DNA from: a virus | DNA: 64,000 nucleotides | Reading direction: 5' to 3' (one strand) | IMG/VR virus record: IMGVR_UViG_3300009104_001476 | In this document: piece by piece, positions 3,001 through 59,115 of the stretch | How the letters are laid out: each line of letters begins with the position of its first letter | Numbering within the stretch: position 1 is the first letter of the stretch | The notes under the pieces: generated by a model | What the model was told of the DNA's origin: nothing | What the model saw: the letters and a program-made list of their open reading frames with translations, nothing else | Databases searched by the model: none | Made by a program: the position numbers and the translations under genes

Positions 3001-3638
3001 CAGCTAGCACTGAACCCGGTCCTACTGGGTCTACAGGACCTACAGGCGCGGTGGGCATGGGCGGATCAGGGGGGACGACCCCAACTATTTCAACAAAAGG
3101 TATAGAGGCGTATGTCGGGAATAGCCTATGTTTTAACCCGTTCGAGTCTTCCGAACAATTTCATGTTAATAACTCTCTGGGGGAAACATTAAATTCTCTT
3201 CAAATTATAAATCACGGAGGTTTTATACCAGAGCCTTGCGAAATCGGATCGTACAAAGCTTATATAGTCAGTAGTGATTTAGATAGTTCTAGCGCTTGCT
3301 CTATTACAATTTATAAAAATGGGGTTTCTACAGGTATTACGAGTGTAGTAAACGGTTCCTCATACGCAGGCCAAACAGTTCATTTAATTAACGAAACGAG
3401 TGGCCAACCAAACAGTTTGAATTTATCGGCTGGAGATAAAATAACGGCCGTTTGTGTTTGTAGTGGAGTAGAGAACAGTAGAGGGGTTATCTTTAAACTT
3501 TCCGGAGTAACTTCAGTAGGCGTAGGTCCAACAGGCCCAGCCGGAGACGCAGGCGCAGGTGGAAATACTGGTCCCACAGGGGCTACTGGGAGTGTAAATA
3601 CCAGTGATATTATAAAATATACCTTAATTTTTGGATAA
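30..3638 (+). CDS. Collagen-like tail fibre/appendage protein (Gly-X-Thr repeats interleaved with globular domains, including three cupredoxin-like domains)
   Basis: 1202-aa ORF with long GPT/GAT/GST triplet runs; a CBM5/12-like motif [21 protein letters not shown]; three related domains with L.L.(R/K)G(Y/F)TY.F...(Y/F).VP..(A/V)P..LYY; C-terminal beta-sandwich-like domain. Confidence 0.85.
2411..2560 (+). repeat. About four 36-bp tandem repeats encoding [12 protein letters not shown]-type collagen units
   Basis: acaggagctacaggcgcaactggagctacggggagc recurs near-identically. Confidence 0.85.
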
Positions 3639-3642
3639 TTAT

Positions 3643-3966
3643 ATGATTGCTAATACTATAATTAATAATACAGCTACAGATATTCTAGAGACCCCTGTAG
3701 ATTCAGCTATAACTGCGTATGCGGGGGTTGGGATGTTTTTCTGTAATGCCGGCGCAACTAATGAAAGTATTAATATTTATGCGGTCCCTAGTGGTCAAGT
3801 AGCTTCGGAAAATAACATGGTTATTAAAGACTTAACCGTGGTCACTGGAGACACATATGAATTTAGTGCTGAAAAATTTTTATTAAATAAGGGAGAAAGT
3901 CTTGTGGCCAGTGGCCAAAATGGGGGTTTAATATCAGCAACAATTACTTATACGGATATAACATAA
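3643..3966 (+). CDS. Small virion-associated beta-sandwich protein (fibre partner)
   Basis: ORF track starts at a TTG at 3631; ATG at 3643 preferred; beta-rich 107 aa directly after the fibre gene. Confidence 0.65.
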
Positions 3967-3967
3967 A

Positions 3968-4222
3968 ATGTCTAGCTTTATAAATAAACAAGGAAGCGAC
4001 TTAACAGGTCCAGTAGGATCTGCAGGACCCACCGGACCTACTGGCGCTGATGGTCAGTCGGGTAACACAGGAGCTGCTGGCTCCACAGGCGCTACGGGAG
4101 CTACGGGTGCTGATGGTGCGCAAGGCAATACAGGGGCTACTGGCGCTGATGGTGCGCAAGGAGAGACTGGTCCGGCTGGAGTAGCTGCTATCAGCGTATT
4201 AGAATTACAAATTTTTAGTTAA
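3968..4222 (+). CDS. Short collagen-like protein
   Basis: 84 aa, almost all G-X-Y triplets, hydrophobic C-terminus VLELQIFS. Confidence 0.8.
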
Positions 4223-4236: not shown

Positions 4237-4593
4237 ATGGCAACATTCACAAAACATAAATTAAGTGGATCTACAGATGGTAAAGGGGTCAAGGTGACAT
4301 CTAATCTCGCAGGCTCGGGAGTAACGGTACACACTGCCGTCACAGGGACTACAGATTTCGATGAAGTATGGTTGTATGCATATAATTCAGACTCTGCAAG
4401 CGTTAACGTAACTGTAGAGTTTGGAGGAACAACTTCTCCTGATAATACTATCACTCAGTCTGTTCCTGCTCAATCAGGACTATATTTATTGATACCGGGT
4501 TTTCCCTTGCAAAACTCAGCTGTAATTTCAGCTTATGCTAGCAAGCAAAACGTGGTTTCTTTATATGGTTTTGTTAATAGGATTGATCAGTAA
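4237..4593 (+). CDS. Small virion-associated protein (fibre partner)
   Basis: 118 aa beta-rich, aaagga RBS upstream; DEVWLYAYN and LLIPGFPLQN motifs resemble small fibre-associated phage proteins as I recall them. Confidence 0.65.
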   Translation: MATFTKHKLSGSTDGKGVKVTSNLAGSGVTVHTAVTGTTDFDEVWLYAYNSDSASVNVTVEFGGTTSPDNTITQSVPAQSGLYLLIPGFPLQNSAVISAYASKQNVVSLYGFVNRIDQ

Positions 4594-4612: not shown

Positions 4613-7600
4613 ATGAGAAATGCAAGATCAAAGTCTACTTTTAGGCCTAGGTGGAGGCGAAGGATTGCAGGAAAAGCAGGAGGTCAGGCTTATCCGATTT
4701 TAAAATCCGTCACGTCTTCGACCGGAGATTTCATTTATGATCCTGAGGTCTCTGCTTGGGCAAAAAGAGTTAATTCTGCAGGAGGATCCGTATCTAATAG
4801 TTGCCTAGAGGCTTCTAGCGCTTTCATTAGGACGATCAAAAATCAGCCGGGCTTAAGACAAAAAATCAAAAGGTTAAATCTCTTTTGTGGCTCAAATCTA
4901 GACTCCTCTTTAATGCCTCTGATCATTGACGAAGGGCCTACTCAGGACATTAACCATAATTTTGCATCAACAGAATACTCAGAAAAGTCTGGGATTAAAA
5001 ATTCAACAGCTTCTGGAAATAAATATTTAGATACAGGTCTCGATCTTTCGTGGTCCGCTGTTGGCCTAACTTTTAATGATGCTCATATAGCAATTAGCAC
5101 CTTGGGAGCGAATACTTCTTCTTCTTACAAAGAATGGATAGGTAGGGATCACTTCTCCCTAGGATCTAACAAAGAAAACAGAAAACTTCAATTTAGGGTG
5201 GGAGAACATACAATTTATGCTGATAATCCAAACCCTCAACAAGGAGCTTGTATGGGGTTTTATCTAGGTAATTGCTGGTGGGGGGACGTAAGTCTTCGTT
5301 TAAATAATAGATCATTAGAAAATATAAACGTCTCTAATAATTCCCCCAGCAACGCTGATTTGTCTCAAAATTTTCATATATTTAAAAGGAATACAGCTTA
5401 TTCAGCCCCTGATGATTTCGATCAAACAGTAAACTTTTATTCAATAGGCTTAGGTTTAAGCGATTCTGAAGCAACAGTTTTATACGATGCTGTTTCAGTA
5501 TTTAATCAGGCAAAAAATAGAGAGTTATTCGAAGCTTTAGATATTGAGGTTTGGAAATGGGCTAACCATAGAATCCCTGAAGCAGTGGGAGATGCTTCAG
5601 CTCACTTTAGCTCTTTACTGGTTCAAAATGCTAGCGCTTGGATGGAGTCCATTAAAAATAATAATTTAAGAGAAAAAATAAATAGAGCTAACTTATTCTT
5701 GGGAAAAAGCTCTTCTAACTATGGTTATTTAACCTCTCTTGTTCCTTTAATCATCGACAGCGGCCACAGAACAGATATTAACAATAATTTTCTTAATTCT
5801 GACTATAATCTAAAATTTGGCCTTCATGGAGACGGAGCTACTAAATTTTTAGATACTGGGATAACGACAAGAGAATTAGTCTCTGCCTCTTCAAATTCAG
5901 GACATCTTTCTGTCGAAGCAACTTCTCCAAGTCCAACCAATACTTCGAGTTCTTCATCGAACTGTTTGATAGGCTCTAAGGAGTCAATCTCTACCGCTGG
6001 GGGCGTTGGTATGAGTATCAGTCTGTCTAAGACTAAAATGACCACTAAAGCTTGGACGGCTTTATCCAAAAGTGCTGTTCCTGCGACACAAGGTATGTTT
6101 ACTTCTAGCATAGGGGCCGGAGGCTCAAACTCGAACGCTAGGACATATTTTAATGGGGCTTTTTTAAGTGATAATTCTAACGATATACAATCAACGTCTT
6201 ACGATTCTTCATTGACAGGCTCTACTATTTCGTTGTTCACTTTAAACACTGTGGAATATGGAAATTTAGGTCACTCATCTCAGTCAATTAAAAGTTATTC
6301 TATTGGCAAAGCTTTAACTGATGACGAAGTGCAAAATTTATATGCAGCGAATTCAAACGTAAAAAGAGTTGAGATTGTTTCTGATGATATGGATTCAGAA
6401 GTATACGATTGGGCAAACTATAGGGTTCCTGCTAACGGAGGTCTCGTTACGCAAAAGGAAGCTGAAGCCGTAAACGCTTGGATGTTAAAAATCAAAACCT
6501 CTTCAGGGTTAAGAGAAAAGCTTAAAAGAGTAAATTTAATGGCCGGATCAAACCTCGCTGCAAAAATGGTTCCCCTTATCGTTGATTCTGGTTATTCTAA
6601 GGTAGATAAAAATACTAACCTATCTGAAGGCGATTCTGTGTCCACGGGCTTAAGAGCTGGCGATGAAAAAAGTATAGATACGACCGTGAAACTTTCAGAT
6701 TTTCTTACAAATAGTTCTGGACACTTTTCGGTAAAAAACTATGCGAGCTTGGACACTTTAATCATGGGGGACACTTTCGCTCATGGGGTCATTACGAATC
6801 AGTCTTCCTATTCTAGCGAAACGAGCGCGGAGCTTTTGGTTTCCTCCGACCACGTCAATGGTTCCAATGTATTTACTGATTCGTCTGGGGCGGGGCACGC
6901 GATCACGAACCATGGCAACACGAGCCACCAAAACGCGGTTGGTAATCCGTTTGGTTCGGGTAGTGCGATTAAATTCGACGGCTCAAGTGATTATCTAACC
7001 GTGGCTGATTCGGCATCATGGACTTTCGGCAGCGGAGATTTTACGATAGAAACATGGATAAACTTCTCAGCTTGGGAGAGTACGAACTTCAACACAATAG
7101 CGTGGTTCGGCCCTGTTCAGATTGACTACAAACGAGACGGCGGGACTAAACAGTTGAGAATGTTCTGCTATAGCTCAGGCGGCAATACTTCAAGCATCCA
7201 GACATGGGACGCCTCACTGGATACTTGGTATCATATTGCTGCCGTCAGAGATAGCGGAAACTTACGACTGTTTGTTAATGGGACATCCCTAGGAACTCCA
7301 CCTGCGCATGAGGGCAACACAACTCTTACAAATGCAACCGGAGCGAGTGCGATCATGGCAAGGGCGGCTAACTCCGTTTCGGGAGTTGGAAGCCCAGACC
7401 GAAAATCTGCTGGCTACATCTACGACTTCCGAGTGTCCAAGGAAGCTAAGTATTCAGATGATTTTTCCAAGCCCACCGCATCTTTCGGGTCCACCGGGGG
7501 CCCCAAGCCTGCCCTCGGCCTCACCATAGACTCAAACGGCGTGAAAGGCTACGTTTGGGACAACAATAGATCAAATGCTGTAAGTTACGCCAAGCTAAAT

Positions 7601-10600
7601 CAAGCGACTACAGAGACGAAAAAGACTGTTGATACTTCCAGTTATTCGCATCCTACCTTGTATTCTGGTCAGCCGATGCCTTACTGGGGGTATCTCAACA
7701 CCGATCTACCGGGCGAAGAAGATAATCAAGCAGACGTTTCTTATATTGTCGAGGACAATGGTGATCATGTCATTGATATTCCTCAGTTAAAGCAGGCATC
7801 CACTTGGGGGCCCGGGCCCGCCGCTATCATTGTTTATAAAAATGGTGTCATTCAGACGCATTTGAGCGATTGGATACATCCTTACGCGTGGCCTATACCT
7901 TGGTCGCGTACGCTTACAGATCTGGCTGTTGGAGATAAAATAAAAGTTGTAATCCAATACCCAGATTGGTCCGCGCCCGGCTGGGAAGCGTGGCCAAACG
8001 TGTGGCGAATTGGAGCGATGGAGAATACTACCGTATTTTTCAAGAGAATAGTTCCCTCAACTCAAAACGCTTTAGACGGTTTGTGGACCGTAAGTAGAAC
8101 TTCAGCCACTGCATCATCTTTGTACTTAGATGGATCCCCCGTGGCTTCTTCTACCGCTTCATCTAATGTGACTAATGTTAGTGACGATTACGTAAACATC
8201 ATGGGGTCTTATTCTGATGATGGATCTATACAAAATCATCATGATAACGCTTCTAGAATAGGATTTTATAGTTTGGGTTTGAGCTTAACAGACGCAGAAG
8301 CTCTTACTTTATCTGAGGCTATAACCGCTTTCGATACCAAGATGAGAAGAGACTTAGATGAAGAAGTCTGGGATTGGGCTTATACTCGGGTTCCTTTAAA
8401 TGGCGGGTCTTTGAGCGAGTCGAACATAAATAATGTAAATACATTCATGCTTGCTCTTAAAACTGAGTCTGGACTAAGAGAGTCTATTAAAAGATTAAAC
8501 GTTTTCGCGGGTTCTAATTTGTCTAGTGCTATGGTGCCTTTGATTAAAGACTTCGGAGACAGTATAGAGAAAAATTATAACTTTACATCTTCAGACGTAA
8601 ACCAAGGGCTAAATTCTAGCGGATCAAAATATCTAGATACTGGGATGAGTTTCAGTGAATTAGATATAATATCTTATAGTAATTTTCATGTAGCCTTATC
8701 TAGAAAAGGTAATTCAGTTAGCGGATACGCCAACTCTGACGCCATCGGTAACGGCTCGATAAGATTGAATTTAACTAATAGGCCTGTAGTTCCAGTGGAG
8801 GGGGCAGATAACTTGATTTATTCTGGAAGTACTATTACTTCAAGTACTGATGGCTCAGGCTTTCTTGTGGGAACCGCAGTTAATAATACAGAAACAAAAT
8901 TATATAAAGGGTCGACAAGTTCCGACACGGGTCCTTTCGATGGTAGCTCATCCATGTCTGCGAACAATTTTATAGTTTGTGGTAATCAAACTGAGGCCGG
9001 GGTTGTAGCACAATTCTCAGGAAGGATCTCTATCTATTCCTTGGGTATTGGGTTAACATCAGGGCAGGTATCAGCTTTTAATAGCGCTGTTTCAGCTTTA
9101 GAACTTTCATTAGAAAGAGGGGATTTTGAGGCTAGTAATTCAGACGCTTGGAAATGGGCTAATATAAATGTTCCTGCTAACGGCGGCCTCGTTAGCCAGA
9201 AACAAGTTACAGCGGTAAACAAGTTCATGGATTCAATAAGTAACATCCATAATCTAAGAGACTCTATTAAAAGAATGAATCTTTTCGTTGGGGAAAATCT
9301 TAACGCCGCCTTGGTTCCTGTCGTATCTGATTTAGGGGCCTCCGTTGAGACAAATAATAATTTTATTTCTAGTGATTACATTTCTACGGGGCCTGACGCA
9401 GGACTAACAGGCGGGTCAGGTAAAACTTTAGATTTAAAAATAAAAGCTAGAGATTTAGGGGATAATTTTGTCATGGCTCTTAGGAGTAATTCGGGATCAA
9501 CTTTTGATAGCTCTTCAAATGCTCCGATAATGGGAGTGGAGGAAGGATTCAGCTCGATGACGATGGGCTCTAACTTGGGTAAATTGTCATTCTTTACTTC
9601 GATTAGCAGCGCTCAAACTATAGACACATCCCATTACATTAAAACTCCCGCCATTTTTAAAGATTTACCTCGAAATTATAATGGCTGCGACATAGTTGGT
9701 AATAGTATTCTTGAGCCTTCCCTAAATACGGACGTTGGCGAATCTTCTTGCGAAACTTTAGAAAACGCTGTTTCTAGTTACGATATACCAAACCACAGTT
9801 TTATTGATAGCTCTTTAAGCCGAAAAATTCTTAACGATCGACTGTACTGCGATTATAGAAATTCGGACATCTTAAGCCGAGGTCAACAATTTTATGGTGA
9901 CGCCGGAGTTAACTTTTCTATTGATCATGAGAAGGGGAGAAACTCTGAGGGCGTAGTGGCTCTGGGTGAAAATGGTGATTTTTGCAAAGGATTTTATTCT
10001 GTTCTCTGCTCGAAAGTTGAGGATTCGAATATTAGCAAACTTAAAATGTATAAAAATGGCCAAGAGATGGTAGAGTCTCAGATGGTTAATCAAAATATTG
10101 GCCCTGCAGCAGAAATAGCTTTATTCGGTAAGCGAAATGGAAGCGTTTTTCACTCCTTCCCTAGTTCAATAAATATCGATTTTTATTGTTTGGGTTCTAA
10201 CGCTGAGACTCCTGACGCATCTAAAAATCCAGACGTTTTAGGTGATGGCTTTTTACCTAACGAAGTTCATAACTTCTTAATTCAACTAGATGTAGATTTA
10301 AACAGAAAAGACTTCCAAAAACCTGATGCTACAAACGGAATACTTGGTAATTTACAAACCTTAACTAGCGAGCTCGATCCCGAGGTCTCAAAATGGGCTA
10401 ATGAAAAAGTCCCGAAAGTTGGGGGGAAATTAAATCCTGAGATAGTATTAGCTGTTAATGCTTGGATGACTAAAATTAAAGAACGAGCCGGATTAAGGCA
10501 AAAGCTTAAAAGAGTAAATCTTTTTTCAAGCGTCAACTTGGCGGGCGCTCTCGTACCCATCATTACAGACGAAGGGTACCCTGTCGACTTAAATCAAGGA

Positions 10601-11974
10601 ACCGTTCAGTTTTCAGAGGATGATTTTATTCTCGGGAGACTGGATGCGGGGACTTCTTGGAGCAGTCTAGACTCCGTGCCCGAAAAATATTTAGATACAG
10701 GACTTAATCCGTCTAAGGCTGGTATAAGTTGGAGTAATTTTCATATGGGCTTTGCTAGCTCGTCAGAGAAGCTTCACGGAAACAAATTGTTCGGGGCACA
10801 AGGTTATCCTACCCCCATATCCGTAAATTGTGGAGACGTTATCGGAGACTCTACCTCGAACGACGAAGCCAGAATAAGCACTTACATTGAATGTACCGGA
10901 GGTGTTGATCACCGCGGTGCTGACCCTCGGGATCCTTTGACCCCGGGTCAATCTTGTCGACAATACCTTAATCCAAATTTGGCGCAAGGAAGATTTTCAA
11001 ATTATATTCAACTCCCGTCCCATCATGAGGCAACTCATTCAACGCTTTACATGGTGACGAAAAACTCCCACGCACATCCCCACCATCTGAGGACTTTTCA
11101 AAATGGGATATTAAGAGGCATCAAATACAATGGATGGTATGAGAGCCTTGACCAGAAATTTAGAGAAGATAAAAATTTCCTTTTGTTTGCCGAACACGCA
11201 GATCAATTAAATTCATTTGAGCTGGTAGACGACATGATTAAGTATGGCGGTATGATTGTGCCTAGCAGGCATTCTTTAACTCCTATAAAATTTTCAGATG
11301 GTAGATATTATATATTTGCATTAACGGATCAAAAATTTACTTTACAGAATTTAGTTTACCCATCCTCGAATACAAACAACTGTTTTAAGGAATACGTATC
11401 GGATGTATATGGTTATGGATGGGAGCCATTAAATTATTCTGAGGTTAAAACCGAATTTTGGAATTCTGATAGACCAGAAGGAGTCTATAACTTCGATAGG
11501 TTAATCAAAGATTTAAAACACGGACATCGTTATGACAAATCTATTGGCTGGTTAGATCCTGATAATATGGAGGGTTTTGGAACCAATCATGCAACACAAT
11601 CAAGCAGGCTATTACTCTACAACGATAAGCAATCGGCTGCTACAAAAGTTTTGAACACACACAACGCTTATGATTCTGACTTAGCTAGCAAAACTATAGT
11701 AAGAAATGTAAATTCATCAGATAAGGATGTAGCTTGTGGGACTTGCGGGTTTGATTTAGTAAGTGCTCCTGTCTTAATGAAAATAGAAGTCCCTAATTCT
11801 TTAAATTATTCGGATACTGTACATAATCAAACATGGGGCTCAGATATAACTTATTATAGTGCCGGAGTTACGATAGAGGATTCTGACGTATCACATCTCA
11901 ACAGCGCATACCTCTCCTTTGTTGAAGCTCTGGATCTTAAAAATTATCATGGAACCCATCTAGGCGCATACTAA
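4613..11974 (+). CDS. Giant repeat-built virion protein (six related modules plus an inserted LamG/concanavalin-like domain)
   Basis: 2453 aa; module-start motif EV..WA..(V/I)P..GG.......(F/W)...IK...LR..IKR.NLF.G.NL...LVP.I.D.G occurs six times; LamG-type motifs FDGSSDYL, GDFTIETW, WYHIAAVR, LRLFVNG. Confidence 0.75.
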   Translation: MRNARSKSTFRPRWRRRIAGKAGGQAYPILKSVTSSTGDFIYDPEVSAWAKRVNSAGGSVSNSCLEASSAFIRTIKNQPGLRQKIKRLNLFCGSNLDSSLMPLIIDEGPTQDINHNFASTEYSEKSGIKNSTASGNKYLDTGLDLSWSAVGLTFNDAHIAISTLGANTSSSYKEWIGRDHFSLGSNKENRKLQFRVGEHTIYADNPNPQQGACMGFYLGNCWWGDVSLRLNNRSLENINVSNNSPSNADLSQNFHIFKRNTAYSAPDDFDQTVNFYSIGLGLSDSEATVLYDAVSVFNQAKNRELFEALDIEVWKWANHRIPEAVGDASAHFSSLLVQNASAWMESIKNNNLREKINRANLFLGKSSSNYGYLTSLVPLIIDSGHRTDINNNFLNSDYNLKFGLHGDGATKFLDTGITTRELVSASSNSGHLSVEATSPSPTNTSSSSSNCLIGSKESISTAGGVGMSISLSKTKMTTKAWTALSKSAVPATQGMFTSSIGAGGSNSNARTYFNGAFLSDNSNDIQSTSYDSSLTGSTISLFTLNTVEYGNLGHSSQSIKSYSIGKALTDDEVQNLYAANSNVKRVEIVSDDMDSEVYDWANYRVPANGGLVTQKEAEAVNAWMLKIKTSSGLREKLKRVNLMAGSNLAAKMVPLIVDSGYSKVDKNTNLSEGDSVSTGLRAGDEKSIDTTVKLSDFLTNSSGHFSVKNYASLDTLIMGDTFAHGVITNQSSYSSETSAELLVSSDHVNGSNVFTDSSGAGHAITNHGNTSHQNAVGNPFGSGSAIKFDGSSDYLTVADSASWTFGSGDFTIETWINFSAWESTNFNTIAWFGPVQIDYKRDGGTKQLRMFCYSSGGNTSSIQTWDASLDTWYHIAAVRDSGNLRLFVNGTSLGTPPAHEGNTTLTNATGASAIMARAANSVSGVGSPDRKSAGYIYDFRVSKEAKYSDDFSKPTASFGSTGGPKPALGLTIDSNGVKGYVWDNNRSNAVSYAKLNQATTETKKTVDTSSYSHPTLYSGQPMPYWGYLNTDLPGEEDNQADVSYIVEDNGDHVIDIPQLKQASTWGPGPAAIIVYKNGVIQTHLSDWIHPYAWPIPWSRTLTDLAVGDKIKVVIQYPDWSAPGWEAWPNVWRIGAMENTTVFFKRIVPSTQNALDGLWTVSRTSATASSLYLDGSPVASSTASSNVTNVSDDYVNIMGSYSDDGSIQNHHDNASRIGFYSLGLSLTDAEALTLSEAITAFDTKMRRDLDEEVWDWAYTRVPLNGGSLSESNINNVNTFMLALKTESGLRESIKRLNVFAGSNLSSAMVPLIKDFGDSIEKNYNFTSSDVNQGLNSSGSKYLDTGMSFSELDIISYSNFHVALSRKGNSVSGYANSDAIGNGSIRLNLTNRPVVPVEGADNLIYSGSTITSSTDGSGFLVGTAVNNTETKLYKGSTSSDTGPFDGSSSMSANNFIVCGNQTEAGVVAQFSGRISIYSLGIGLTSGQVSAFNSAVSALELSLERGDFEASNSDAWKWANINVPANGGLVSQKQVTAVNKFMDSISNIHNLRDSIKRMNLFVGENLNAALVPVVSDLGASVETNNNFISSDYISTGPDAGLTGGSGKTLDLKIKARDLGDNFVMALRSNSGSTFDSSSNAPIMGVEEGFSSMTMGSNLGKLSFFTSISSAQTIDTSHYIKTPAIFKDLPRNYNGCDIVGNSILEPSLNTDVGESSCETLENAVSSYDIPNHSFIDSSLSRKILNDRLYCDYRNSDILSRGQQFYGDAGVNFSIDHEKGRNSEGVVALGENGDFCKGFYSVLCSKVEDSNISKLKMYKNGQEMVESQMVNQNIGPAAEIALFGKRNGSVFHSFPSSINIDFYCLGSNAETPDASKNPDVLGDGFLPNEVHNFLIQLDVDLNRKDFQKPDATNGILGNLQTLTSELDPEVSKWANEKVPKVGGKLNPEIVLAVNAWMTKIKERAGLRQKLKRVNLFSSVNLAGALVPIITDEGYPVDLNQGTVQFSEDDFILGRLDAGTSWSSLDSVPEKYLDTGLNPSKAGISWSNFHMGFASSSEKLHGNKLFGAQGYPTPISVNCGDVIGDSTSNDEARISTYIECTGGVDHRGADPRDPLTPGQSCRQYLNPNLAQGRFSNYIQLPSHHEATHSTLYMVTKNSHAHPHHLRTFQNGILRGIKYNGWYESLDQKFREDKNFLLFAEHADQLNSFELVDDMIKYGGMIVPSRHSLTPIKFSDGRYYIFALTDQKFTLQNLVYPSSNTNNCFKEYVSDVYGYGWEPLNYSEVKTEFWNSDRPEGVYNFDRLIKDLKHGHRYDKSIGWLDPDNMEGFGTNHATQSSRLLLYNDKQSAATKVLNTHNAYDSDLASKTIVRNVNSSDKDVACGTCGFDLVSAPVLMKIEVPNSLNYSDTVHNQTWGSDITYYSAGVTIEDSDVSHLNSAYLSFVEALDLKNYHGTHLGAY

Positions 11975-11994
11975 AACTAAAGAAAGGAAAAAAT

Positions 11995-12243
11995 ATGAAA
12001 ATGATTATTCTTAACAACGAAGAACTTTCAGAGTTAGAAAAAATTAACTCAATGAACCTCCACTTGAATAGAGCTATACAAGCTGTAGAGCTAAGTGAGG
12101 GGGAGCATGGTGTAAATTCTGACATTCTTGAAGATCGCGTAACTTGGGAAAAGTGGATTGGTTTTTTACAGGATAAACCAGTAAAAGAAATTGACTTGGC
12201 TGATTTACAAAAAGATATCGACTCTTCTGAAGAAGAAAATTAA
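11995..12243 (+). CDS. Hypothetical protein
   Basis: 82-aa acidic ORF with aaagga RBS, fills the gap between two genes. Confidence 0.6.
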   Translation: MKMIILNNEELSELEKINSMNLHLNRAIQAVELSEGEHGVNSDILEDRVTWEKWIGFLQDKPVKEIDLADLQKDIDSSEEEN

Positions 12244-12276
12244 TATCAAAAGTCTTTCTTTTATATATAATAATTA

Positions 12277-13356
12277 ATGAAGACTTTATGCGCGGCTTTA
12301 ATCGTCAAGAACGAAAGTAATGTAATATCAAGGTGTTTGAGTAGCTTAAAACCTTATATAGATTACTGGCTTGTCTGCGACACCGGCTCTACAGACTCAA
12401 CCAAAGAGATGGTTCAGTCGGAGCTATCAGAAATCCCGGGAGAACTTCATGAAGTTCCTTGGGTTAATTTCGGTCACAACAGGAGCGAGCTTTTACGCTT
12501 AGCTAAGGGGAAAGCTGATTATTTATTATTGATAGACGCAGATGAAACCTTATCTGTCCACGATCCTGATTTTAAAAATAAGTTAAATTTAGATTCTTAT
12601 TTAATAAAATTTGAAGGAGATTTAGAATGGAGGCAAAAGAAGTTAGTTGGTAATCATATTAATTGGGAATACAAAGGCGTTACTCATGAATATATAACTT
12701 CTAATGAGGATAAAAATTTTCAACCGGCAGACTTTATCAGTTTAAATCATTTTTGCGACGGGGCAAGAAGGCCAGAAAAGTTCGAAGACGATATAAGTCT
12801 ATTGAGAAAAGGCATAAAAGAAGAGCCTAAAAATTGTAGATATTGGTTTTATTTGGCTCAGACCCTTTTCGATCTAGGGAGATATAAAAAAGCTTTAAAA
12901 GCTTATGATTCGACAATTCAGCTATCGGAATGGGATGAAGAAATATATTATTCTTTATTTAAAAAAGCCTTATGTTTAAAACATCTTAAGGGCTTTTTTC
13001 CTTATGACCAATTCTTTAAAGCTCATCAATTTCGCCCTTCTAGGTTCGAAGCTATCCATGAGATAATCAGACATTTTAGGGAGAAGGGTTATTACGACAT
13101 GGCTTACTCTTTGTGCAAAAAGGAGATAAATAAGCCTGAAAGTCAAGATTTACTATTCATAGATAAGAGTTTAAACAACTACAAATTAAAAGACGAACTT
13201 GCCGTATGCTCATATTGGGTTGGAGAATTCGAAGAAAGCGGCAGATTAAATGAGGAATTGCTGAAAAACCCAAAAGTGCCAGAATTCGAAAAGAATCGAA
13301 TAAAAACGAACCAGCAGTTTGCTGAAAATAAAATCAAAGAAAAGTGTAATTACTAG
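12277..13356 (+). CDS. GT2 family glycosyltransferase with C-terminal TPR-like repeats
   Basis: LIVKNESNVISRCLSS, DTGSTDST, LLLIDADE (DxD), YKGVTHE; helical C-terminus RYWFYLAQTLFDLGRYKKALKAY. Confidence 0.9.
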   Translation: MKTLCAALIVKNESNVISRCLSSLKPYIDYWLVCDTGSTDSTKEMVQSELSEIPGELHEVPWVNFGHNRSELLRLAKGKADYLLLIDADETLSVHDPDFKNKLNLDSYLIKFEGDLEWRQKKLVGNHINWEYKGVTHEYITSNEDKNFQPADFISLNHFCDGARRPEKFEDDISLLRKGIKEEPKNCRYWFYLAQTLFDLGRYKKALKAYDSTIQLSEWDEEIYYSLFKKALCLKHLKGFFPYDQFFKAHQFRPSRFEAIHEIIRHFREKGYYDMAYSLCKKEINKPESQDLLFIDKSLNNYKLKDELAVCSYWVGEFEESGRLNEELLKNPKVPEFEKNRIKTNQQFAENKIKEKCNY

Positions 13357-13359: not shown

Positions 13360-13875
13360 ATGAAAGTAGTAGACATAGCTGACGAACTGTTTAATGAGTT
13401 AGGAGGGCCCTCAACCCTATCTCTTCCAGCTATCGCTTACTGGTTAAGGACCAATATCGGGACTCTTAGTAATTATTTGAATGAAGAATTTAGTTTAAAT
13501 TCTACGTCTTTAGATATAGAAAAAACAGTAGATGAGGAAAAAGTCCAAATCGATGAAGATGAAAAAGATATTTTAAAAAAGATGTATCATATTCATTATT
13601 ATGATATTTTATTAAGAAATACTTTGGCTGCAGCTGGCACCGATAGCGTTGTCGAAATCCAGTCTGACGATACAAGAGTCAGAAGAATCAACAAAAACGA
13701 ATTAACTAAAACTTATATCAGTTTGAAAAGGACCGAGCAACAAGAGCTTACCAAGTTAACAAACGGGTATAAACTTAAAAAATCTCAGCCTTTACAGATC
13801 GCTGGTGATGATACTATAAAGGGACAGTTTCCTCATAGGACTTACGAAAAAAATAAAAACAGGACTCAGGATTAA
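13360..13875 (+). CDS. Putative neck/head-tail adaptor protein
   Basis: 171 aa, helical; called from its position at the head of the neck/tail cluster only. Confidence 0.45.
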   Translation: MKVVDIADELFNELGGPSTLSLPAIAYWLRTNIGTLSNYLNEEFSLNSTSLDIEKTVDEEKVQIDEDEKDILKKMYHIHYYDILLRNTLAAAGTDSVVEIQSDDTRVRRINKNELTKTYISLKRTEQQELTKLTNGYKLKKSQPLQIAGDDTIKGQFPHRTYEKNKNRTQD

Positions 13876-13878
13876 GCC

Positions 13879-14322
13879 ATGGCTAATTTATTAAGCACTA
13901 CAGACAAGGCTTACTTTACGGGCGTTCTGGGAGATCTTTTCGATACTTTTCAAAGACCCATTAAAGTCCATAAAGAGCCTTTGAAAAAAATCGTAAACCC
14001 TGCTGTAGATGTATACGCAGGGTATGCGGACACGTCTACTCCGGACAATATAGAATTTGTCCCTCAATCTAAAATTTTTGAAGCTATGATATCTTACGTA
14101 GATAAAAGTCAGTCTTCTTTAGATACAGATATAAACATTCAAATACCTAGAAACGCTTCTGTAAGAATTAAAGTTAAACAGGACTGTAGAGATTACATCA
14201 AAACAGGAAGAACTGAAAGGATAGAAATAGACGGAAAAAGCTTTAATGTTATTGGGCAAGAAAGCGTAAAATATAATTTTGGATATTACTTATTTGTATA
14301 TTACTTGGAACTTACAAAATAA
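13879..14322 (+). CDS. Putative head closure/stopper-like protein
   Basis: 147 aa beta-rich (RIEIDGKSFNVIG); called from synteny. Confidence 0.45.
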   Translation: MANLLSTTDKAYFTGVLGDLFDTFQRPIKVHKEPLKKIVNPAVDVYAGYADTSTPDNIEFVPQSKIFEAMISYVDKSQSSLDTDINIQIPRNASVRIKVKQDCRDYIKTGRTERIEIDGKSFNVIGQESVKYNFGYYLFVYYLELTK

Positions 14323-14933
14323 TGGGAAAAATAAATAGACAGGTTTTTAAAAAAGAGATATCGAAAGCCTTTTCGAAAAGTAAGGTTAAGCATTTGGCCT
14401 TTGAGGAAGCTCAAAAAAAAATTGATAGAATTAGAAGAGAGGCTTTGATAGAGTTTAAGCAGCACCCTGTATCAAAAGAATTAAGATCTGGGAAAAGCGC
14501 TAACAACATTTCCAACACTTTGGGAGGCAGAGGAAACCTTTTTACGTTTATAGGGTTCCAAGAAGGAGAAGACCCCACTTTTATTGTGGAGAGAGCCATA
14601 CAAGATATAAGAATAAATAGAACTCCTAGGATCAGAGAGATAGGTAGAAGCGGAAGGTATGAAATAGCTTTTACAGCAACTTTTCCAAATGTAAAAAGTC
14701 TAGAATCTGTTACACCCATGCCTTTCGAAGGCGGCAGAAGCTGGCTAACTGCGATAGAAAGAGGTATCTCTGGCTTAAGTTATTATATTTATAGTAGAGT
14801 TAATGATATAAAAGCTAGTAGGTCTGGCAAGGGCATACAGTCCGATAGCCCTTATATACCGGGATTAAAATATAGACCAGTAGGATATATATCTTCGATA
14901 CTCGGCAAAATAAGAAACAGAATTAAGTCATGA
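14322..14933 (+). CDS. Putative neck/tail completion protein
   Basis: 203 aa, basic, coupled to both neighbours by overlapping stop/start codons; synteny. Confidence 0.45.
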   Translation: MGKINRQVFKKEISKAFSKSKVKHLAFEEAQKKIDRIRREALIEFKQHPVSKELRSGKSANNISNTLGGRGNLFTFIGFQEGEDPTFIVERAIQDIRINRTPRIREIGRSGRYEIAFTATFPNVKSLESVTPMPFEGGRSWLTAIERGISGLSYYIYSRVNDIKASRSGKGIQSDSPYIPGLKYRPVGYISSILGKIRNRIKS

Positions 14934-15796
14934 AAGCTCAATACGAAAATAAGGTAATTTCTAGCACTTTGTTGTGGATGGATCATACCGTAGCCTCTAT
15001 TGGCTCAGGATATACAAATCATAGTTCTTTATTCTATGACGTAGGGAGCCAATGGTATGGATATTACGCTTACGGTTTACCTTACAAACAGGTATTGTCC
15101 GATCATTCTGTTAAGCCTAATGCTCCTACCGACCCGAAGGTAATGACTGGGATATATGTCGATGGCACGTTCACTACACCCGGACAAGGAGACTTGGTTG
15201 ACATAGATTACTCTAACGGGCATGTATATTTCTCTTCAGATCAGGCGGGGAAGACTTTAAGCGGAGATTATGCGGTAAAGGACTTTAATGTCTATTTAAC
15301 GAACAAGACCGATCAAGACTTACTTTTCGAGACCAAGGTGGAAACTAGACCTAAGACCAGCACAAATCCGGCCGCTTTAGAAACTGATGTTATTACATAC
15401 CCAGCGATTTTCATTAAGAATTTAGGTGGAAAAAACGAGCCTTGGGCTTTTGGCGGAGTGGACGAGACTATCACTAATGTTAGGGCTATAGTGCTTGCGG
15501 ACAGTCAATTTAATCTAGACGCATCGTGTTCTATTTTAAAAGATAGGGTCCGAACAAATATAAAGTTAATTGAAGAAAATAATTACCCATTTAATGCTCT
15601 AGGTGGGTACAAATCAAGTGTATATAATTATACGGGATTAGCGGCCGGTTCCACTAGTCACGTATGGGTAAACGATGTTTACGTTTCTCAGTTTAATGTA
15701 GACTACATAAGCGAGATAAAAAACGCTAATCCTGACGTTTATAGCGCTATTGTAGATGTAGATCTGAGAAGCGAAAACAGAATGCCCAGAGCGTAA
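14930..15796 (+). CDS. Putative tail terminator-like structural protein
   Basis: 288 aa immediately upstream of the tail tube; C-terminal YPAIFIK...AWFGG-like segment (PWAFGG) then VRAIVLAD. Confidence 0.45.
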   Translation: MKAQYENKVISSTLLWMDHTVASIGSGYTNHSSLFYDVGSQWYGYYAYGLPYKQVLSDHSVKPNAPTDPKVMTGIYVDGTFTTPGQGDLVDIDYSNGHVYFSSDQAGKTLSGDYAVKDFNVYLTNKTDQDLLFETKVETRPKTSTNPAALETDVITYPAIFIKNLGGKNEPWAFGGVDETITNVRAIVLADSQFNLDASCSILKDRVRTNIKLIEENNYPFNALGGYKSSVYNYTGLAAGSTSHVWVNDVYVSQFNVDYISEIKNANPDVYSAIVDVDLRSENRMPRA

Positions 15797-15865: not shown

Positions 15866-16984
15866 ATGGGAAAAAATAGAATCATTTATCAGAGTCAGGC
15901 CGTGTATGCCGGGCCCGCCGCCCCTAGTGGAACCTATCTCAATGAGACAGGTGTTGCGGCAGGCGTATCATACGCTCAACCTTCGAACCTCCAACGTGTA
16001 CAGAACGTCAACTATAGCTTTGACATTTCTCGTACAGATGTTAACCAATTTGGTGAGCTAGCAAATATCGACCGGGTTATTCTCGAATCTCCTTCTGTGT
16101 CGCTGGACTTCTCTTACTACTTTGCAGATTTTGCAAACGAGAAGACGCTTGGCTTTACCATCATGAACAACTCTACTCTTAAGTCTTCCATCTCTGGAAT
16201 GCTTAACCGAGTGACCGATGAGAGAAATTATTATGTTAGGGTAGTCAACGAAGGTCAAGACGTTAACGATCTTACTGGGGCGACTACAACTGGCACGGGC
16301 GTTAATGACGTGGTTGCTATCGGTAATGCCTTTTTGGCATCTTACTCTAGTGACGCTTCTGTGGGAGACTTCCCAACTGCAAGTATCACTGTGGAAGCTT
16401 TGAATATCGCTTTCGATAAGGGTACCACAGGAAATATTATTCCTGCCATTAACCCCACTACAGGCGGAAAGAAGACGCAAACATATGCACTTCCAGATGC
16501 AAGCTCGAATGTCCAAAACGATTACTCGGTCGTAAGACCCGGAGATATCACCATGGACCTCGCTACGGGGCTTTTAGGTGCAGACGATGGCGACGTTAAG
16601 ATCCAAAGCTACAGCTTAAGCTTTGACTTGGCTCGTGAGCCACTGCAGCAGCTTGGAAGTAAGTTCGCGTTTGCTCGTGAAATGACCTTCCCTGTTACGG
16701 TTTCTCTATCTGTTGACGCTCTATTGGGCGATCTGCGTACTGGCAACTTGGCTGACCTCGTTTCTGGTGACGGCACCTCGGTGCACGATCTGGTAATCCA
16801 CCTTAAGAGTGGAGGAGACGACCACTGTCAATATCTCTTGAAGCAGGCTAAGCTTGACGGACACAGCTATAGCACCTCGATTGGTGACAACAAGACTGTT
16901 ACGTTGAACTTCAGCTCTCAGATTGGTTCTTCACAGCAAACTGGTGTTGGACTGTTTATGAGTGGTGTTGGACACGACGCATAA
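15866..16984 (+). CDS. Major tail tube protein with two tandem tube-like domains
   Basis: 372 aa; internal duplication RVQNVNYSFDISRTDVNQFG / KIQSYSLSFDLAREPLQQLG; position before chaperones and TMP; followed by a strong terminator. Confidence 0.75.
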   Translation: MGKNRIIYQSQAVYAGPAAPSGTYLNETGVAAGVSYAQPSNLQRVQNVNYSFDISRTDVNQFGELANIDRVILESPSVSLDFSYYFADFANEKTLGFTIMNNSTLKSSISGMLNRVTDERNYYVRVVNEGQDVNDLTGATTTGTGVNDVVAIGNAFLASYSSDASVGDFPTASITVEALNIAFDKGTTGNIIPAINPTTGGKKTQTYALPDASSNVQNDYSVVRPGDITMDLATGLLGADDGDVKIQSYSLSFDLAREPLQQLGSKFAFAREMTFPVTVSLSVDALLGDLRTGNLADLVSGDGTSVHDLVIHLKSGGDDHCQYLLKQAKLDGHSYSTSIGDNKTVTLNFSSQIGSSQQTGVGLFMSGVGHDA

Positions 16985-17007: not shown

Positions 17008-17038
17008 GGGCCCCTCTTTTAGAGGGGTCCTTTTTTTT
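17008..17038 (+). terminator. Rho-independent terminator after the tail tube gene
   Basis: GGGCCCCTCT-TTT-AGAGGGGTCC followed by T8. Confidence 0.9.
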
Positions 17039-19393: not shown

Positions 19394-22300
19394 ATGGCAG
19401 AATCCGCATCAGTAAGAGTAAGGGCAGAGTTAGACTCGCGCCCCGCAGAGAAAACCTTGGCCCGCTTTGTAAAAAAAGCGGAAAGTGTTGATGTAAGGCT
19501 GTCTTTAAAAGACAAGAACTTTACTCAGCCTCTCGGAAGAATTACCGGAGCCGCTGACGAGTTCAATAAATCTCTCGCTGCTTCGAACGCTCGCGTCGTA
19601 GCTTTCGCGGCCTCAGCTGGGTTAATGTATTCCGTCCAAAGAGCTTTAGTCTCTGTTACTAAATCAGCCATTGAGGTGGAGGCAGCCTTGGCTGATATCA
19701 ATGTTATCCTTGGAGCTTCCTCTACAAATCTTGCTAAATTTGGAGATCAATTATTTAAAATAGCAGGGCAAACTGGTCAAGCTTTTCAAACAGTTACCGT
19801 GGCCGCTACTGAATTGGCTCGTCAGGGTTTATCGATGGAGGAAACCCTCAGGCGAACTAAAGATGCCATGATCCTGACTAGATTGGCCGGTATGGATGCG
19901 GCTTCAGCCGTAGACGCCTTAACGGCCTCAATCAACTCATTCAACAAAGCGGCTATCACGTCTACCGAAATAGTAAACAAAATGGCTACAGTCGATGCGG
20001 CCTTTGCGGTAAGTACAAACGATTTAGCGGACGCCTTAAAACGCGTAGGTAGTAGCGCTATTGACGCGGGAGTTAGTTTCGACCAGTTGATGGCTATGAC
20101 TACATCAGTGCAACAGATTACTGCTCGTGGTGGCGCAGTTATCGGTAACTCATTAAAGTCTATCTTCACCCGCATTCAAAGAACCGAGGTTTTGGATCAA
20201 CTGCAAATGTTGGGCGTGGCAGTAAGAGACATGAAAGGAAATACTTTACCAGCTATCCAAATCATGACCCAATTGGCTAAAACTATAGATAGTTTAAGCT
20301 CTGCTCAAAAAGCTAACATTACAGAATTAATGGGTGGCGTCTTCCAAATCAACGTAGTTAAAGCTGCTCTCGGTGATTTAGGTAAGGAATATTCTATTTA
20401 TCAAAACGCTTTAAAAGTTTCTACAGACGCAACCGACGCAGCGACTAAAAGAAATGAAAAGTTAAATGAAACTCTATCTGCTTTAGTAAATAAAACTTTC
20501 CAGAACGTTAAGAAAGCAGGCGCGGAGATCGGCAAATTAACTATCGCTCCAGCCTTGGAGGGGGTGCTAGATAAAGTAAATAGTGCGCTGGAAAAATTCG
20601 ACCCGAAAGATTCAGAAAGCACTGGTAATAAAATTGCTCGAGGAATTCTGGAAGGCATAGGTAACTTCATTAAGGGACCCGGGTTAATTATTGGTTTAGC
20701 TGTCATAGGAAAACTTCTTCAACAATTCGGTAAATTTGCTAGCGACTCATTCAAAGAGTTCTTTAATATCAACGAAGCAGCGAAAAAAAGACTCGCTATG
20801 GAGAAGTTTATTAATCAAGAACTATCTCACAACGAAGATTTAACACAAGCTATATTATCGGGAGAACTGAAAGTTGCTGATGCAGAAAAAATTATATTAA
20901 AAGGTTTAGAAGCTCGAGTTCTCCAGCAGGAGAAATTAAATAGGTTGATCAAGGAGGCTTCTTACGGGCTGAGCCGTAGAGGGGCTCATGCGGCATTGGT
21001 TGATCCGACAGAAGGAACTTACGCAGTTAAGCCTCCTAAAAGGTCTGGTGGCCATGTCCCGAATTTTTCTCAGATAGATATTCAGGCTTTAGTTAAAGAA
21101 GAGTTAACGTCTGCAAGCTATGCAAAATCAGGCACGAAAGCTGTAATTGATACCTTACCCGGTTTAGGACTCCATGTAAGAAATACCGAAGAGAGCATAT
21201 CTTACGCTCCGGGTATGAGGTCTCCTTTTATCAATCCCCCAATTGATAGTCCCGAAGGAAGAACTCATAGAGAAAAATCAATACGGCAGACTGGTATAGA
21301 CCCTTATCAATTATCATCGAGTTCAGGGCTTCCGGGTTTTGCCAAGGCTAACAAAAAAAAGCCTACCCCAAAAATAAAAGACTTAAGATCTAGTAATAAA
21401 TCAAAAGGCGTACTTCTCCCAGAGTTTGGCAGGAACGACACGAACTTAACGTTTCAATCAAGTCTAGCTCAAGTCTTTCCTGACACTAAGAGCCTAGAGA
21501 GGCAGAAATGGGCAGAAAAGGGCTTTACCGGTTTTAAGATGACTGGTGTAAAAGCTGCTAGATTAAGAGAAAAATCTTCAGCCTCTTTCGACACCTTGTT
21601 AGATTCCAATTTCGACCCCGCGATACAAGGCTTGGGTTCATCTATAGTAGGAACCAATAAGGGTAAACTTCCTAAAAAGACCACCGGAAAATTTTCTGAT
21701 TACTTTGATAAAAAAGCTTGGCCTCAAACTAAAGGTCGAATCTTCGAAGCGGCTTTAAATTATGTTGCAGTTAACATGTCTGCAAAAGCTCAAATGAACA
21801 ACAGGCTTGCAGAGATTAAAAATCTTACTGGAGGAGAAACTTGGGATTTCCCAGATATAAAAAATCAATTGGCGTCTTTATATAAGATTCAGCCGGCGGG
21901 GAACTGGGACGCTAAGTCGAACATTGACCAAGGGACTCAAGCCTCTATTATCAAGAAAACTTTGAATACTAAATATCAAGGTAAAACTATTCCAAATAAA
22001 TCTGCCGGATCTATTCCTAACTTCAGCCTAGGCCAAAAAGTTATGGGCATAAATACTATTCAGGCAAAAAACGCGATAGAAAGATTTAGATCTGGAGAAA
22101 TTTCGCAAGCGCAAGGATTAGTTACTCAGATTAATTCTTCCAGAAGTTTATCTTCAGCAGAAAAGAGCACATTGAAAGAGGAGATCAATGCTATTAGACG
22201 TCAAAAGAAAAACGCAAAGAATCCTAAAGGCCTAACTATCGATGGGACTAATTTAGGGAGCATGCTAGTTCCAAGAGTCGGCTCTTCTCAGGGAACCGGT

Positions 22301-33604: not shown

Positions 33605-34442
33605 GTTTATTCTTTAATTCTTGAAGCTCTTTATCTATAGTCATCAAAGCTTGATTAAGTATAGCTTCATTTTTATTTATATCATCTCTAAGTAAGGGTA
33701 AATTTAGATTAGGAGTAAAGTCTGTTAAAATTCTATATTGTGCATTAATTTTATTATCTTTAAGGTAATTTGTTTCAAGTATTAATTCCCACTTAGTCGT
33801 TGAGACTTTTCCATTCTGAGTGTTAGGGGGTAGTGGGTGATTTAAAACTATAACAGTGCCTTTTTCAGAATATAATAAATTAGCTATGGACCTATCTTCG
33901 ATTGTCCTTTTGTCAAGCATGTTGAAATTCACCTCTACTTCGGCTTTTCCAAAGACTTGTTTAGTTTCCGGAGCTTCTATATATATTCCATGGGTATCCA
34001 CTTCTATATTAAGGATTCCTCCATTCTTATCAACTTCTGTGACTTTAAGTTGAGTGGGGATGTCTACGTCATTGACTAAATCTTTTTTAGAGAGTCCTCC
34101 TTGAAGGGTAAGGATTTCCCCCTTTTTGAAGTCGGCGCCCTTTTTCTTGATAGATATTTCTGAGACTTCGTACTCTTTGAATGTAAGCCTGATAGAGTCG
34201 TTCAAGCCGAGCTTAAGCCCTGTATTCTCGTGAATAAAGATTTTATCATTTTCGACCCTCTCGAAGTCTTTGATATAAAAGAAGTTTTCTTTATTTACTA
34301 TTTTGTAAAAATTATCATCCTCGTCAAAAACAATAAAGCTTCCCTCTATTAAAGCCCCCCAATCCGCTTGGGAAGAAGCAATAACTTTATTAGTGTCTTT
34401 TAAAATAGAAGCCGTATATCCGAAATGTTTCCTTGTTGCCAT
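33597..34442 (-). CDS. Tail-associated hypothetical protein
   Basis: 281 aa; GADFKKGEILTLQGG...LKVTEVDKNGGI resembles repeat modules of virion proteins; last gene of the tip block. Confidence 0.5.
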   Translation of the reverse strand: MATRKHFGYTASILKDTNKVIASSQADWGALIEGSFIVFDEDDNFYKIVNKENFFYIKDFERVENDKIFIHENTGLKLGLNDSIRLTFKEYEVSEISIKKKGADFKKGEILTLQGGLSKKDLVNDVDIPTQLKVTEVDKNGGILNIEVDTHGIYIEAPETKQVFGKAEVEVNFNMLDKRTIEDRSIANLLYSEKGTVIVLNHPLPPNTQNGKVSTTKWELILETNYLKDNKINAQYRILTDFTPNLNLPLLRDDINKNEAILNQALMTIDKELQELKNKLT

Positions 34443-34454
34443 AACCTTGTATAT

Positions 34455-35207: not shown

Positions 35208-35209
35208 AA

Positions 35210-40321: not shown

Positions 40322-40324
40322 ATT

Positions 40325-40996: not shown

Positions 40997-41336
40997 CGTT
41001 TTCTGGCTCTAAGATTTCAAATTTCTCTGTAACGGTATTATATAAAATACTAACGATTTCTAAATCATCGCAAACCCCCTTATCTATGTCAGAGAAGGAT
41101 TGGCCTTCGATAGTGTGCGAATGATATACCGCTAAGATGTCTCCTTCCACTAAGGCGTCTAAATATTCGTCTACAGATATTTTAAAAAAGTTTTTTTTGT
41201 CTTTCGCTATATTTTTACACTCGATCGTCCTTAGGGCTCCCTCTTCCGACTCTATTAAAAAGCCGCAGCATTCCTCCGGAAGGTTTTCGTCTGCGTGTCT
41301 TTTAATTCTGCTTTTTATTTTACTACTTAATTGCAT
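40989..41336 (-). CDS. JAB/JAMM metalloprotease (lambda gpK-like, without the NlpC/P60 domain)
   Basis: 115 aa; PEECCG, YHSH, FSDID form an intact E..HxH..S..D motif; located between L and I. Confidence 0.85.
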   Translation of the reverse strand: MQLSSKIKSRIKRHADENLPEECCGFLIESEEGALRTIECKNIAKDKKNFFKISVDEYLDALVEGDILAVYHSHTIEGQSFSDIDKGVCDDLEIVSILYNTVTEKFEILEPENDE

Positions 41337-41337
41337 T

Positions 41338-42486: not shown

Positions 42487-42492
42487 AATGTT

Positions 42493-44896: not shown

Positions 44897-44946
44897 GATA
44901 AAAGATAAGCGTTTAAGATGAAACAGCAAGCTTTTTTTGAAAAAAA

Positions 44947-56617: not shown

Positions 56618-56624
56618 TATCATT

Positions 56625-59113: not shown

Positions 59114-59115
59114 AA

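Follow-up and report, generated by a model that had tools for sequence, protein, structure and literature searches.

A TPR-domain glycosyltransferase in the virion gene block of an uncultured marine phage, and the proposed O-glycosylation of its collagen-like fibres

The virus record IMGVR_UViG_3300009104_001476 (142,348 bp; CheckV completeness estimate 83%) represents an uncultured marine phage. Its last 64 kb, the stretch of DNA analysed here and called the window below, contains at 12277-13356 (+) a gene for a glycosyltransferase with a tetratricopeptide repeat (TPR) domain. The question raised by this locus is what a phage glycosylates with an enzyme that is encoded among its own virion genes. 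A first-pass annotation had proposed that the phage modifies its own fibres. Our analysis leads to a similar answer: the enzyme probably O-glycosylates threonine (Thr) residues of the phage's own collagen-like fibres, much as C. difficile SgtA does with BclA3. We regard a sugar coat on the phage's own fibres as the most likely outcome because the enzyme is of a type that modifies proteins and peptides, is encoded in the virion block and sits in the same swappable cassette as Thr-rich collagens. The enzyme gene and the fibre genes upstream of it are as follows.

30-3638 (+): collagen-like fibre protein of 1202 amino acids (aa), matching Pfam Collagen at 2.6e-36; the proposed main substrate
3631-3966 (+): conserved 111-aa cassette protein with no Pfam match; a 41% identical homologue lies at the same position in the related locus L083
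3968-4222 (+): mini-collagen of 84 aa, matching Pfam Collagen at 3.8e-11; the proposed second substrate
4237-4593 (+): conserved 118-aa cassette protein, with a 43% identical homologue in L083
4613-11974 (+): giant fibre or adhesin-like protein of 2453 aa (the LamG giant below), matching Pfam Laminin_G_3 at 8e-14, with a homologue in L083
11995-12243 (+): small acidic protein of 82 aa, directly upstream of the glycosyltransferase gene here and likewise in L082 and L083
12277-13356 (+): glycosyltransferase of 359 aa, soluble GT-A (GT2) plus TPR, identified by Pfam, PHROG, AlphaFold and Foldseek

The open reading frame (ORF) of the glycosyltransferase is intact. Pfam places Glycos_transf_2 (PF00535) at residues 8-93 with 28.9 bits (cut-off 23.3) and TPR_17 at residues 175-207 with 27.5 bits (cut-off 24.4), the TPR repeats spanning residues 175-227, while PHROG 13126, named 'beta-1,4-glycosyltransferase', matches residues 3-331 at 2e-29. 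A hydrophobic segment is absent (the top 19-residue Kyte-Doolittle mean is 0.85), and the enzyme is thus predicted to be soluble, with no membrane anchor. In an alignment of 27 relatives (39-71% identity), conservation runs along the entire enzyme. D35, the DxD motif D87-A88-D89 and H137-E138 are invariant in 27/27 relatives, and so are many positions of the TPR region. Since the Pfam and PHROG matches, the alignment of 27 relatives and the absence of a hydrophobic segment all agree, the first-pass description of a GT2 and TPR gene at 12277-13356 (+) was correct. The gene is the sole member of its family in the 142-kb record. The family itself is large, with more than 6,000 relatives at E <= 1e-5, mostly unannotated. 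The closest of these (P0002-P0012) are 67-86% identical to the enzyme, and their gene contexts were left out of the locus comparisons below. Homologues in the plasmid and phage collections came from Bacillus, Listeria and Enterococcus only, and a blastn search of the enzyme region against the phage collection gave no match.

An AlphaFold model built from the 27-relative alignment (mean predicted local distance difference test score, pLDDT, 93.9; predicted template-modelling score 0.88) consists of a GT-A beta/alpha domain at residues 1-160, with pLDDT above 90, followed by ten helices at residues 165-358 that form an all-helical, TPR-like domain. The top Foldseek matches in the PDB were the S-glycosyltransferases SunS and ThuS (7msn, 7msp, 7msk), which aligned over the whole length in 373-388 columns (E 1e-17 to 4e-17; template-modelling score, TM, 0.63-0.65). 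A second class of matches, comprising TarP, TarS and RmlT, covered the GT-A half only, starting from about E 4e-7. By sequence, the best match among natural solved proteins was the glycosyltransferase domain of GmaR (E 3.8e-11, residues 4-96), followed by ThuS and SunS at 8e-8 to 8e-6. Because the fold matches SunS and ThuS over its whole length and the sequence matches GmaR, ThuS and SunS, the enzyme is placed in the group of GT-A plus TPR enzymes; the members characterised so far work in the cytoplasm, with proteins or peptides as their acceptors. Assignment as a SunS orthologue was rejected, the SunS equivalog TIGR04195 (NCBIfam) scoring 42.2 bits against a cut-off of 350.

The characterised system closest to the proposed one is that of C. 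difficile. SgtA (CD3350), a protein of 358 aa in which four TPRs come after a GT-A domain, is encoded directly upstream of bclA3; in vitro it transfers beta-O-linked N-acetylglucosamine (beta-O-GlcNAc) from UDP-GlcNAc, in a Mn2+-dependent manner, onto Thr (also Ser) of BclA3 GPT-repeat peptides (PMC7157674). Compared by published description only, the two enzymes are alike in size (358 versus 359 aa), in the order of a soluble GT-A domain and TPRs, in their pairing with a collagen-like protein rich in Gly-X-Thr (G-X-T) triplets and, if our proposal holds, in attaching the first O-linked sugar to Thr. They differ in that ours comes from a phage and would act on virion fibres, whereas SgtA modifies a layer of the spore. 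In addition, bclA3 adjoins sgtA, while in the phage 8-12 kb of the shared gene block separate the collagen genes, which are upstream, from the enzyme gene.

Other relatives show how varied the acceptors of such enzymes are. SunS and ThuS share the GT-A domain and a helical, TPR-like substrate-binding domain and are the best whole-length structural matches, but they are only 15-20% identical to the phage enzyme and modify small bacteriocin peptides at Cys thiols; near the phage enzyme gene, nothing recognisable as a glycocin precursor gene was seen. GmaR of Listeria monocytogenes (PDB 22ao) is a cytoplasmic GT-A plus TPR protein O-glycosyltransferase that adds O-GlcNAc to flagellin, and its sequence match is confined to the N-terminal part of our enzyme. 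At about 640 aa GmaR is far longer, its acceptor is flagellin, and it doubles as a thermosensing anti-repressor. This second, non-enzymatic role, as the anti-repressor of MogR, is described in PMC9638930. Mycobacteriophages provide a precedent on the phage side, since their glycosyltransferases decorate their own virion proteins (Freeman et al. 2023, Cell Host Microbe, as cited in PMC12619734). The glycans there are placed at the C-termini of capsid and tail-tube subunits, with no collagen-like substrate involved. With SgtA-BclA3 and the glycosylation of mycobacteriophage capsids and tail tubes already established, the step from SgtA-BclA3 to phage fibres is a short one.

The presumed acceptors are rich in the triplet that SgtA would predict. 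In the 1202-aa protein, 139 G-X-Y triplets are spread over 12 collagen runs and G-X-T accounts for 70 of the triplets, chiefly as GAT and GPT, and the mini-collagen has 9 G-X-T among 20 triplets, which bears out the Thr-rich collagens reported by the first-pass annotation. Both proteins score above the Pfam Collagen cut-off, together they hold 79 Gly-X-Thr triplets, and the 142-kb record has no collagen genes besides these two. Each has a homologue in L083, that of the larger protein at the same position and that of the mini-collagen 87 aa long. The LamG giant, an alternative substrate, carries a concanavalin-A-like lectin domain with no collagen repeats and has no excess of G-X-T (19 observed, 13 expected). 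A G-x-T sequon used throughout the virion was considered and rejected, as the tail tube, the tape measure, gpJ and the LamG giant all have about the expected G-x-T frequency.

The association of this enzyme family with collagen genes was examined in viral contigs, metagenomes and bacterial genomes, with 80 loci fetched per set; the bacterial loci came largely from Streptomyces. The viral loci were retrieved by an alignment query, a single-protein query of the viral contigs having returned nothing. An ORF in the locus flanks counted as collagen if it contained 8 or more G-X-Y triplets in uninterrupted succession. The counts were as follows.

Viral loci: collagen ORF in 37 of 80, the nearest within 1 kb in 25
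Metagenomic loci: collagen ORF in 30 of 80, the nearest within 1 kb in 22
Bacterial loci: collagen ORF in 59 of 80, the nearest within 1 kb in 50

The nearest collagen ORF was on the same strand as the enzyme gene in 34 of the 37 viral cases. In the first 1 kb around the enzyme gene there were 1.8-3.6 collagen ORFs per 10 kb; at a distance of 3-10 kb this density had dropped to 0.1-0.17. A control set of 80 loci of the ribonucleotide reductase small subunit NrdB (1,334 kb) contained no collagen ORFs at all; that control is weak, being a narrow group of marine phages, and we therefore rely mainly on the decay with distance within the enzyme loci. When one representative was kept per 50%-identity cluster, 10/23 collagen ORFs lay within 1 kb against 12% expected (P = 2e-4), a count that is coarse because single-linkage clustering at 50% identity put most bacterial sequences in one cluster. 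All ten sampled collagen neighbours scored above the Pfam Collagen cut-off. Many neighbours are strongly enriched in G-X-T, with 80/84 triplets in a Streptomyces locus (L165) whose enzyme is 41% identical over residues 3-357, 597/657 in a viral locus and 95/108 in a giant-virus bin. The collagen-adjacent state is spread across the enzyme tree, with 40 changes, and the pairing spans Actinomycetota, Pseudomonadota, Bacteroidota, Chlamydiota, Myxococcota, phages and giant-virus bins. The association between enzyme and collagen is real and recurrent and extends beyond one clade, but it is not universal. The co-occurrence that the first-pass annotation had suggested looking for is thus present: in viral, metagenomic and bacterial loci, relatives of the enzyme are found beside collagen-like genes, often rich in G-X-T, far above background.

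One carrier of a homologue is a cultured phage and a possible experimental model. The 309-kb Tunturiibacter phage Tunturi_5 (L001, PP885688.1) encodes a 41% identical homologue, gp35, and its gp29, a collagen-containing 'tail fiber protein', is encoded about 4 kb from gp35 on the opposite strand.

Comparison with relatives of the phage showed that the enzyme gene and the fibre cassette are gained and lost together. L083, whose enzyme is 56% identical, keeps the order collagen, 111-aa protein, mini-collagen, 118-aa protein, LamG giant, 82-aa protein and glycosyltransferase, followed by eight downstream genes (about 55% identity). The neck/tail block that starts at the 171-aa gene is also present in six further relatives. 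In L332, L334 and G002 another fibre cassette is found upstream of that block, with no collagen and no enzyme gene there. G002 (162 kb, 96% complete) has no relative of the enzyme anywhere; its collagens lie elsewhere and are of a charged GEK/GSK type that is poor in Thr, with 8 G-X-T among 64 triplets. All in all, the Thr-rich collagen cassette and the enzyme move together and are present or absent as a unit.

The exchange maps to a swap site between the head genes and the neck/tail block (window 4613-13356, compared with L332, L334, L335 and L339/G002). The cassettes at this site are wholly unlike one another: G002 encodes proteins of 459 and 782 aa there, L332 a giant of 2581 aa, and L334 has eight genes whose products are about 270 aa long.

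The position of the enzyme gene also ties it to virion formation. Farther upstream in the record (G000), the large terminase is encoded at 55580-57409 and the portal at 57489-59432, and the genes that follow the enzyme belong to the neck and tail.

13360-15796 (+): four conserved genes (171, 147, 203 and 288 aa) that start the neck/tail block, recognised by synteny with L083 and L332-L337
15866-16984 (+): tail-tube-like protein of 372 aa, the fifth of the eight downstream genes, identified in the protein atlas
19394-33604 (+): tape measure of 4736 aa at the tail end of the virion block, matching Pfam PhageMin_Tail at 3.4e-27

The neck/tail block is common to all relatives, with or without the glycosyltransferase gene. 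None of the eight genes downstream of the enzyme has a Pfam or PHROG match. In the protein atlas the tube-like gene falls with the Phage_tube_2 and Phi812 tail tube clusters (feature score 0.95-0.97, TM 0.70-0.71), and the first gene of the block (13360-13875) gave a weak lead to an SU10 adaptor. The first-pass placement of the enzyme between fibre and neck genes therefore stands for the fibres upstream; for the neck, identities go no further than the tube-like gene and the weak adaptor lead. Intergenic gaps around the enzyme gene are 3-33 bp, and a terminator scan found no terminator-like hairpins between 11500 and 17008, the first strong one being at 17008-17030, after the tube gene.

Taken in this setting, the preferred explanation can be put as a scheme in which we infer the acceptor, the O-linkage to Thr, the timing and the sugar. 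A soluble, metal-dependent GT-A enzyme would be made late in infection together with the virion proteins, and its C-terminal TPR domain would hold the protein substrate. A nucleotide sugar would donate the first sugar, which the enzyme would attach, in the host cytoplasm, to Thr hydroxyl groups in the Gly-X-Thr repeats. The acceptors would be the 1202-aa (30-3638) and 84-aa (3968-4222) collagens, modified before or during fibre assembly.

Several observations weigh against this explanation. The collagen genes are not adjacent to the enzyme gene; they are 8-12 kb upstream and three or more genes away, in a record of 142 kb, chance alone would bring genes this close in about 1 case in 6, and the fibre gene closest to the enzyme encodes the LamG giant, which has no collagen. 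In about half of the scorable family loci, no collagen gene is found up to 1.5 kb from the enzyme gene. Outside the immediate clade, the closest viral relatives (L003, L004, L005 and L120, 39-44% identity) have none within 10 kb, and one of them has collagen genes only at about 32 kb. No collagen gene was found near the Bacillus homologues on two plasmids and one 5.5-Mb record, and the Tunturi_5 homologue sits after nucleotide-metabolism genes. L335, from a record that is 36% complete, carries a GAT-rich collagen gene in the syntenic position but no enzyme gene next to it or anywhere else in that record. The first-pass proposal of self-glycosylated fibres thus draws support from architecture, fold, solubility, co-occurrence and cassette linkage, and is at odds with the lack of collagen genes within 10 kb in the closest viral relatives outside the immediate clade.

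The fold and architecture point to a protein or peptide acceptor without naming which, and the acceptor could be something other than collagen: the LamG giant, another virion protein, the Ser/Thr/Pro-rich protein at the end of the window (the SNTP protein, see below), or host flagellin or pilin. The LamG giant and the 82-aa ORF lie immediately upstream and are conserved with the enzyme in L083, the substrates of characterised relatives are diverse (glycocins for SunS and ThuS, flagellin for GmaR), and the family loci that have no nearby collagen gene, roughly half, fit such an acceptor as well. We nevertheless consider it unlikely, given that collagen-like genes are the only recurrent class of neighbour across viruses and bacteria, that the LamG giant has no enrichment in G-X-T or Thr, that L332 has another giant at the same place and no enzyme, and that the SNTP gene is 50 kb from the enzyme.

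An acceptor that is not a protein at all appears improbable. By this account the gene would be a 'moron' acting on host envelope polysaccharide, lipopolysaccharide or teichoic acid, or its product would modify phage DNA, and the labels attached to the family lean that way: its PHROG is named beta-1,4-glycosyltransferase and filed under 'moron, auxiliary metabolic gene and host takeover', and JGI labels relatives 'involved in cell wall biosynthesis'. These names are automatic annotations. TarP, TarS and RmlT do appear among the weaker fold matches, but over the GT-A half only and about 10 orders of magnitude weaker than SunS and ThuS, and the enzyme has no membrane segment. Although the gene's neighbours in Tunturi_5 and T4-like contigs are nucleotide-metabolism and replication genes, in this phage it lies among the late virion genes and comes and goes with a fibre cassette. 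DNA modification in particular was rejected, as the 142-kb record yielded no gene of the thymidylate-synthase or hydroxymethylase type (PF00303 family) and the fold matches are to peptide glycosyltransferases. Finally, the protein might descend from a glycosyltransferase but have lost catalysis, serving as a TPR scaffold or as a chaperone in fibre assembly. TPR domains mediate assembly, the gene sits among assembly genes, and GmaR has a non-enzymatic anti-repressor role too (PMC9638930). Because the catalytic motifs are invariant, with the DxD and other GT-A signature residues kept in 27 relatives down to 39% identity, and with the GT-A domain modelled at very high confidence, we hold an idle scaffold to be very improbable.

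Glycosylation of the collagen fibres would begin with a single sugar, and the remainder of the window contains genes that may act after it. These lie 31-50 kb from the enzyme gene.

44947-46134 (-): GT9-like (heptosyltransferase-like) protein, a weak assignment (Glyco_transf_9 21.9 bits, cut-off 22; weak NCBIfam match to heptosyltransferase III)
48837-49925 (+): probable glycosyltransferase of 362 aa, with PHROG 4356 and 2170 at 1.3e-6 and 8e-5 and no Pfam match
55118-56617: probably the 'double GT2' of the first-pass annotation, a weak match (E 1.6e-3)
56625-57416 (+): methyltransferase by Pfam and NCBIfam; candidate for tailoring
57418-58800 (+): fusion of a HAD phosphomutase and a nucleotidyltransferase by Pfam and NCBIfam; candidate for donor supply
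59547-60620 (+): GDP-mannose 4,6-dehydratase (GMD) by Pfam and NCBIfam; candidate for donor supply
62047-62817 (+): sulfotransferase, matching Pfam Sulfotransfer_2 at 3e-12; candidate tailoring enzyme
63386-64000 (+): Ser/Thr/Pro-rich protein ending in (SNTP)n, recognised by translation and cut by the contig end

The sugar genes named in the first-pass annotation are thus confirmed for gmd, the methyltransferase and the sulfotransferase and are weak for the GT9-like gene, for the 'GT4' (probably 48837-49925) and for the 'double GT2'. The mucin-like SNTP protein reported at the end of the window is indeed there and runs off the contig; it has at least 13 repeats, its gene is next to that of the sulfotransferase, and the repeat may have broken the assembly. 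That it serves as a further substrate is pure conjecture. The fusion at 57418-58800 joins a beta-phosphoglucomutase-like HAD domain to a sugar-1-phosphate nucleotidyltransferase, a compact two-step route from sugar phosphate to nucleotide sugar, and two small ORFs separate it from the GMD gene.

Among 148 non-collagen neighbours of the viral relatives, GDP-mannose dehydratase/epimerase (9-10) and RmlD-like (7) were the Pfam families seen most often; methyltransferases accounted for 4 and sulfotransferases for 2. Some longer relatives of 540-630 aa (P0026, P0028, P0029, P0046 and P0087) carry an added second GT2, sulfotransferase or LicD domain, and these fusions hint at the steps after the first sugar. 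That the distant GMD, methyltransferase, sulfotransferase and other glycosyltransferases extend the fibre glycan is a conjecture, to which these neighbours and fusions lend indirect support. A wider and rather doubtful extension would be a mobile 'glyco-collagen' module of GT2-TPR enzyme and G-X-T collagen in bacteria, phages and giant viruses, whose glycan in this phage might be extended with GDP-mannose-derived 6-deoxy sugars, methyl groups and sulfate into a sulfated, mucin-like virion coat.

The GT9-like gene and its 253-aa partner (44168-46134 (-)) are kept in G002 (L338 7177-9114; 32% and 60% identity), where the pair lies tail to tail with two Thr-poor collagen genes of the GEK type. 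GT9 includes the protein O-heptosyltransferases of autotransporters. Given this and the collagen neighbours in G002, the pair could be a second fibre-modifying system.

Other features of the record concern the tail module and gene sharing. The lambda-like tail-tip genes M, L, a K-like JAB protein, I and a 1703-aa J are on the minus strand (33597-43038) and converge on the 3' end of the plus-strand tape measure gene, an arrangement that splits the tail module in an unusual way. Tube-like proteins occur as three paralogues: 15866-16984 before the tape measure, 43156-44181, which carries a TIG domain, after the tail-tip genes, and 59435-60532 in G000, directly after the portal and 25-29% identical to the tube-like proteins of relatives. 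A homologue of type I signal peptidase (S26) is encoded at 53876-54412 (-). The ribonucleotide reductase small subunit (52860-53879) is 84-92% identical in at least 80 other viral contigs, and several complete records of 158-178 kb share this NrdB and have no copy of the glycosyltransferase, so that the ribonucleotide reductase gene is far more widely shared than the structural genes.

In the literature that we searched, no paper was found that pairs a GT-A/TPR enzyme with phage collagen fibres. The pairing gives a very large enzyme family, with its more than 6,000 relatives, a testable class of substrate, and the 84-aa mini-collagen is an unusually simple one with which to begin. If glycosylation of the collagen fibres is confirmed, tailed phages would decorate receptor-binding or head/neck fibres with sugars by the same enzymatic logic that spore-formers apply to exosporium collagens, with effects on host recognition, particle stickiness and shielding. 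The sequence of a fibre alone would then under-describe the surface that a host or predator meets. A sulfated, mucin-like coat, should it exist, would shape adsorption, stickiness or shielding in seawater.

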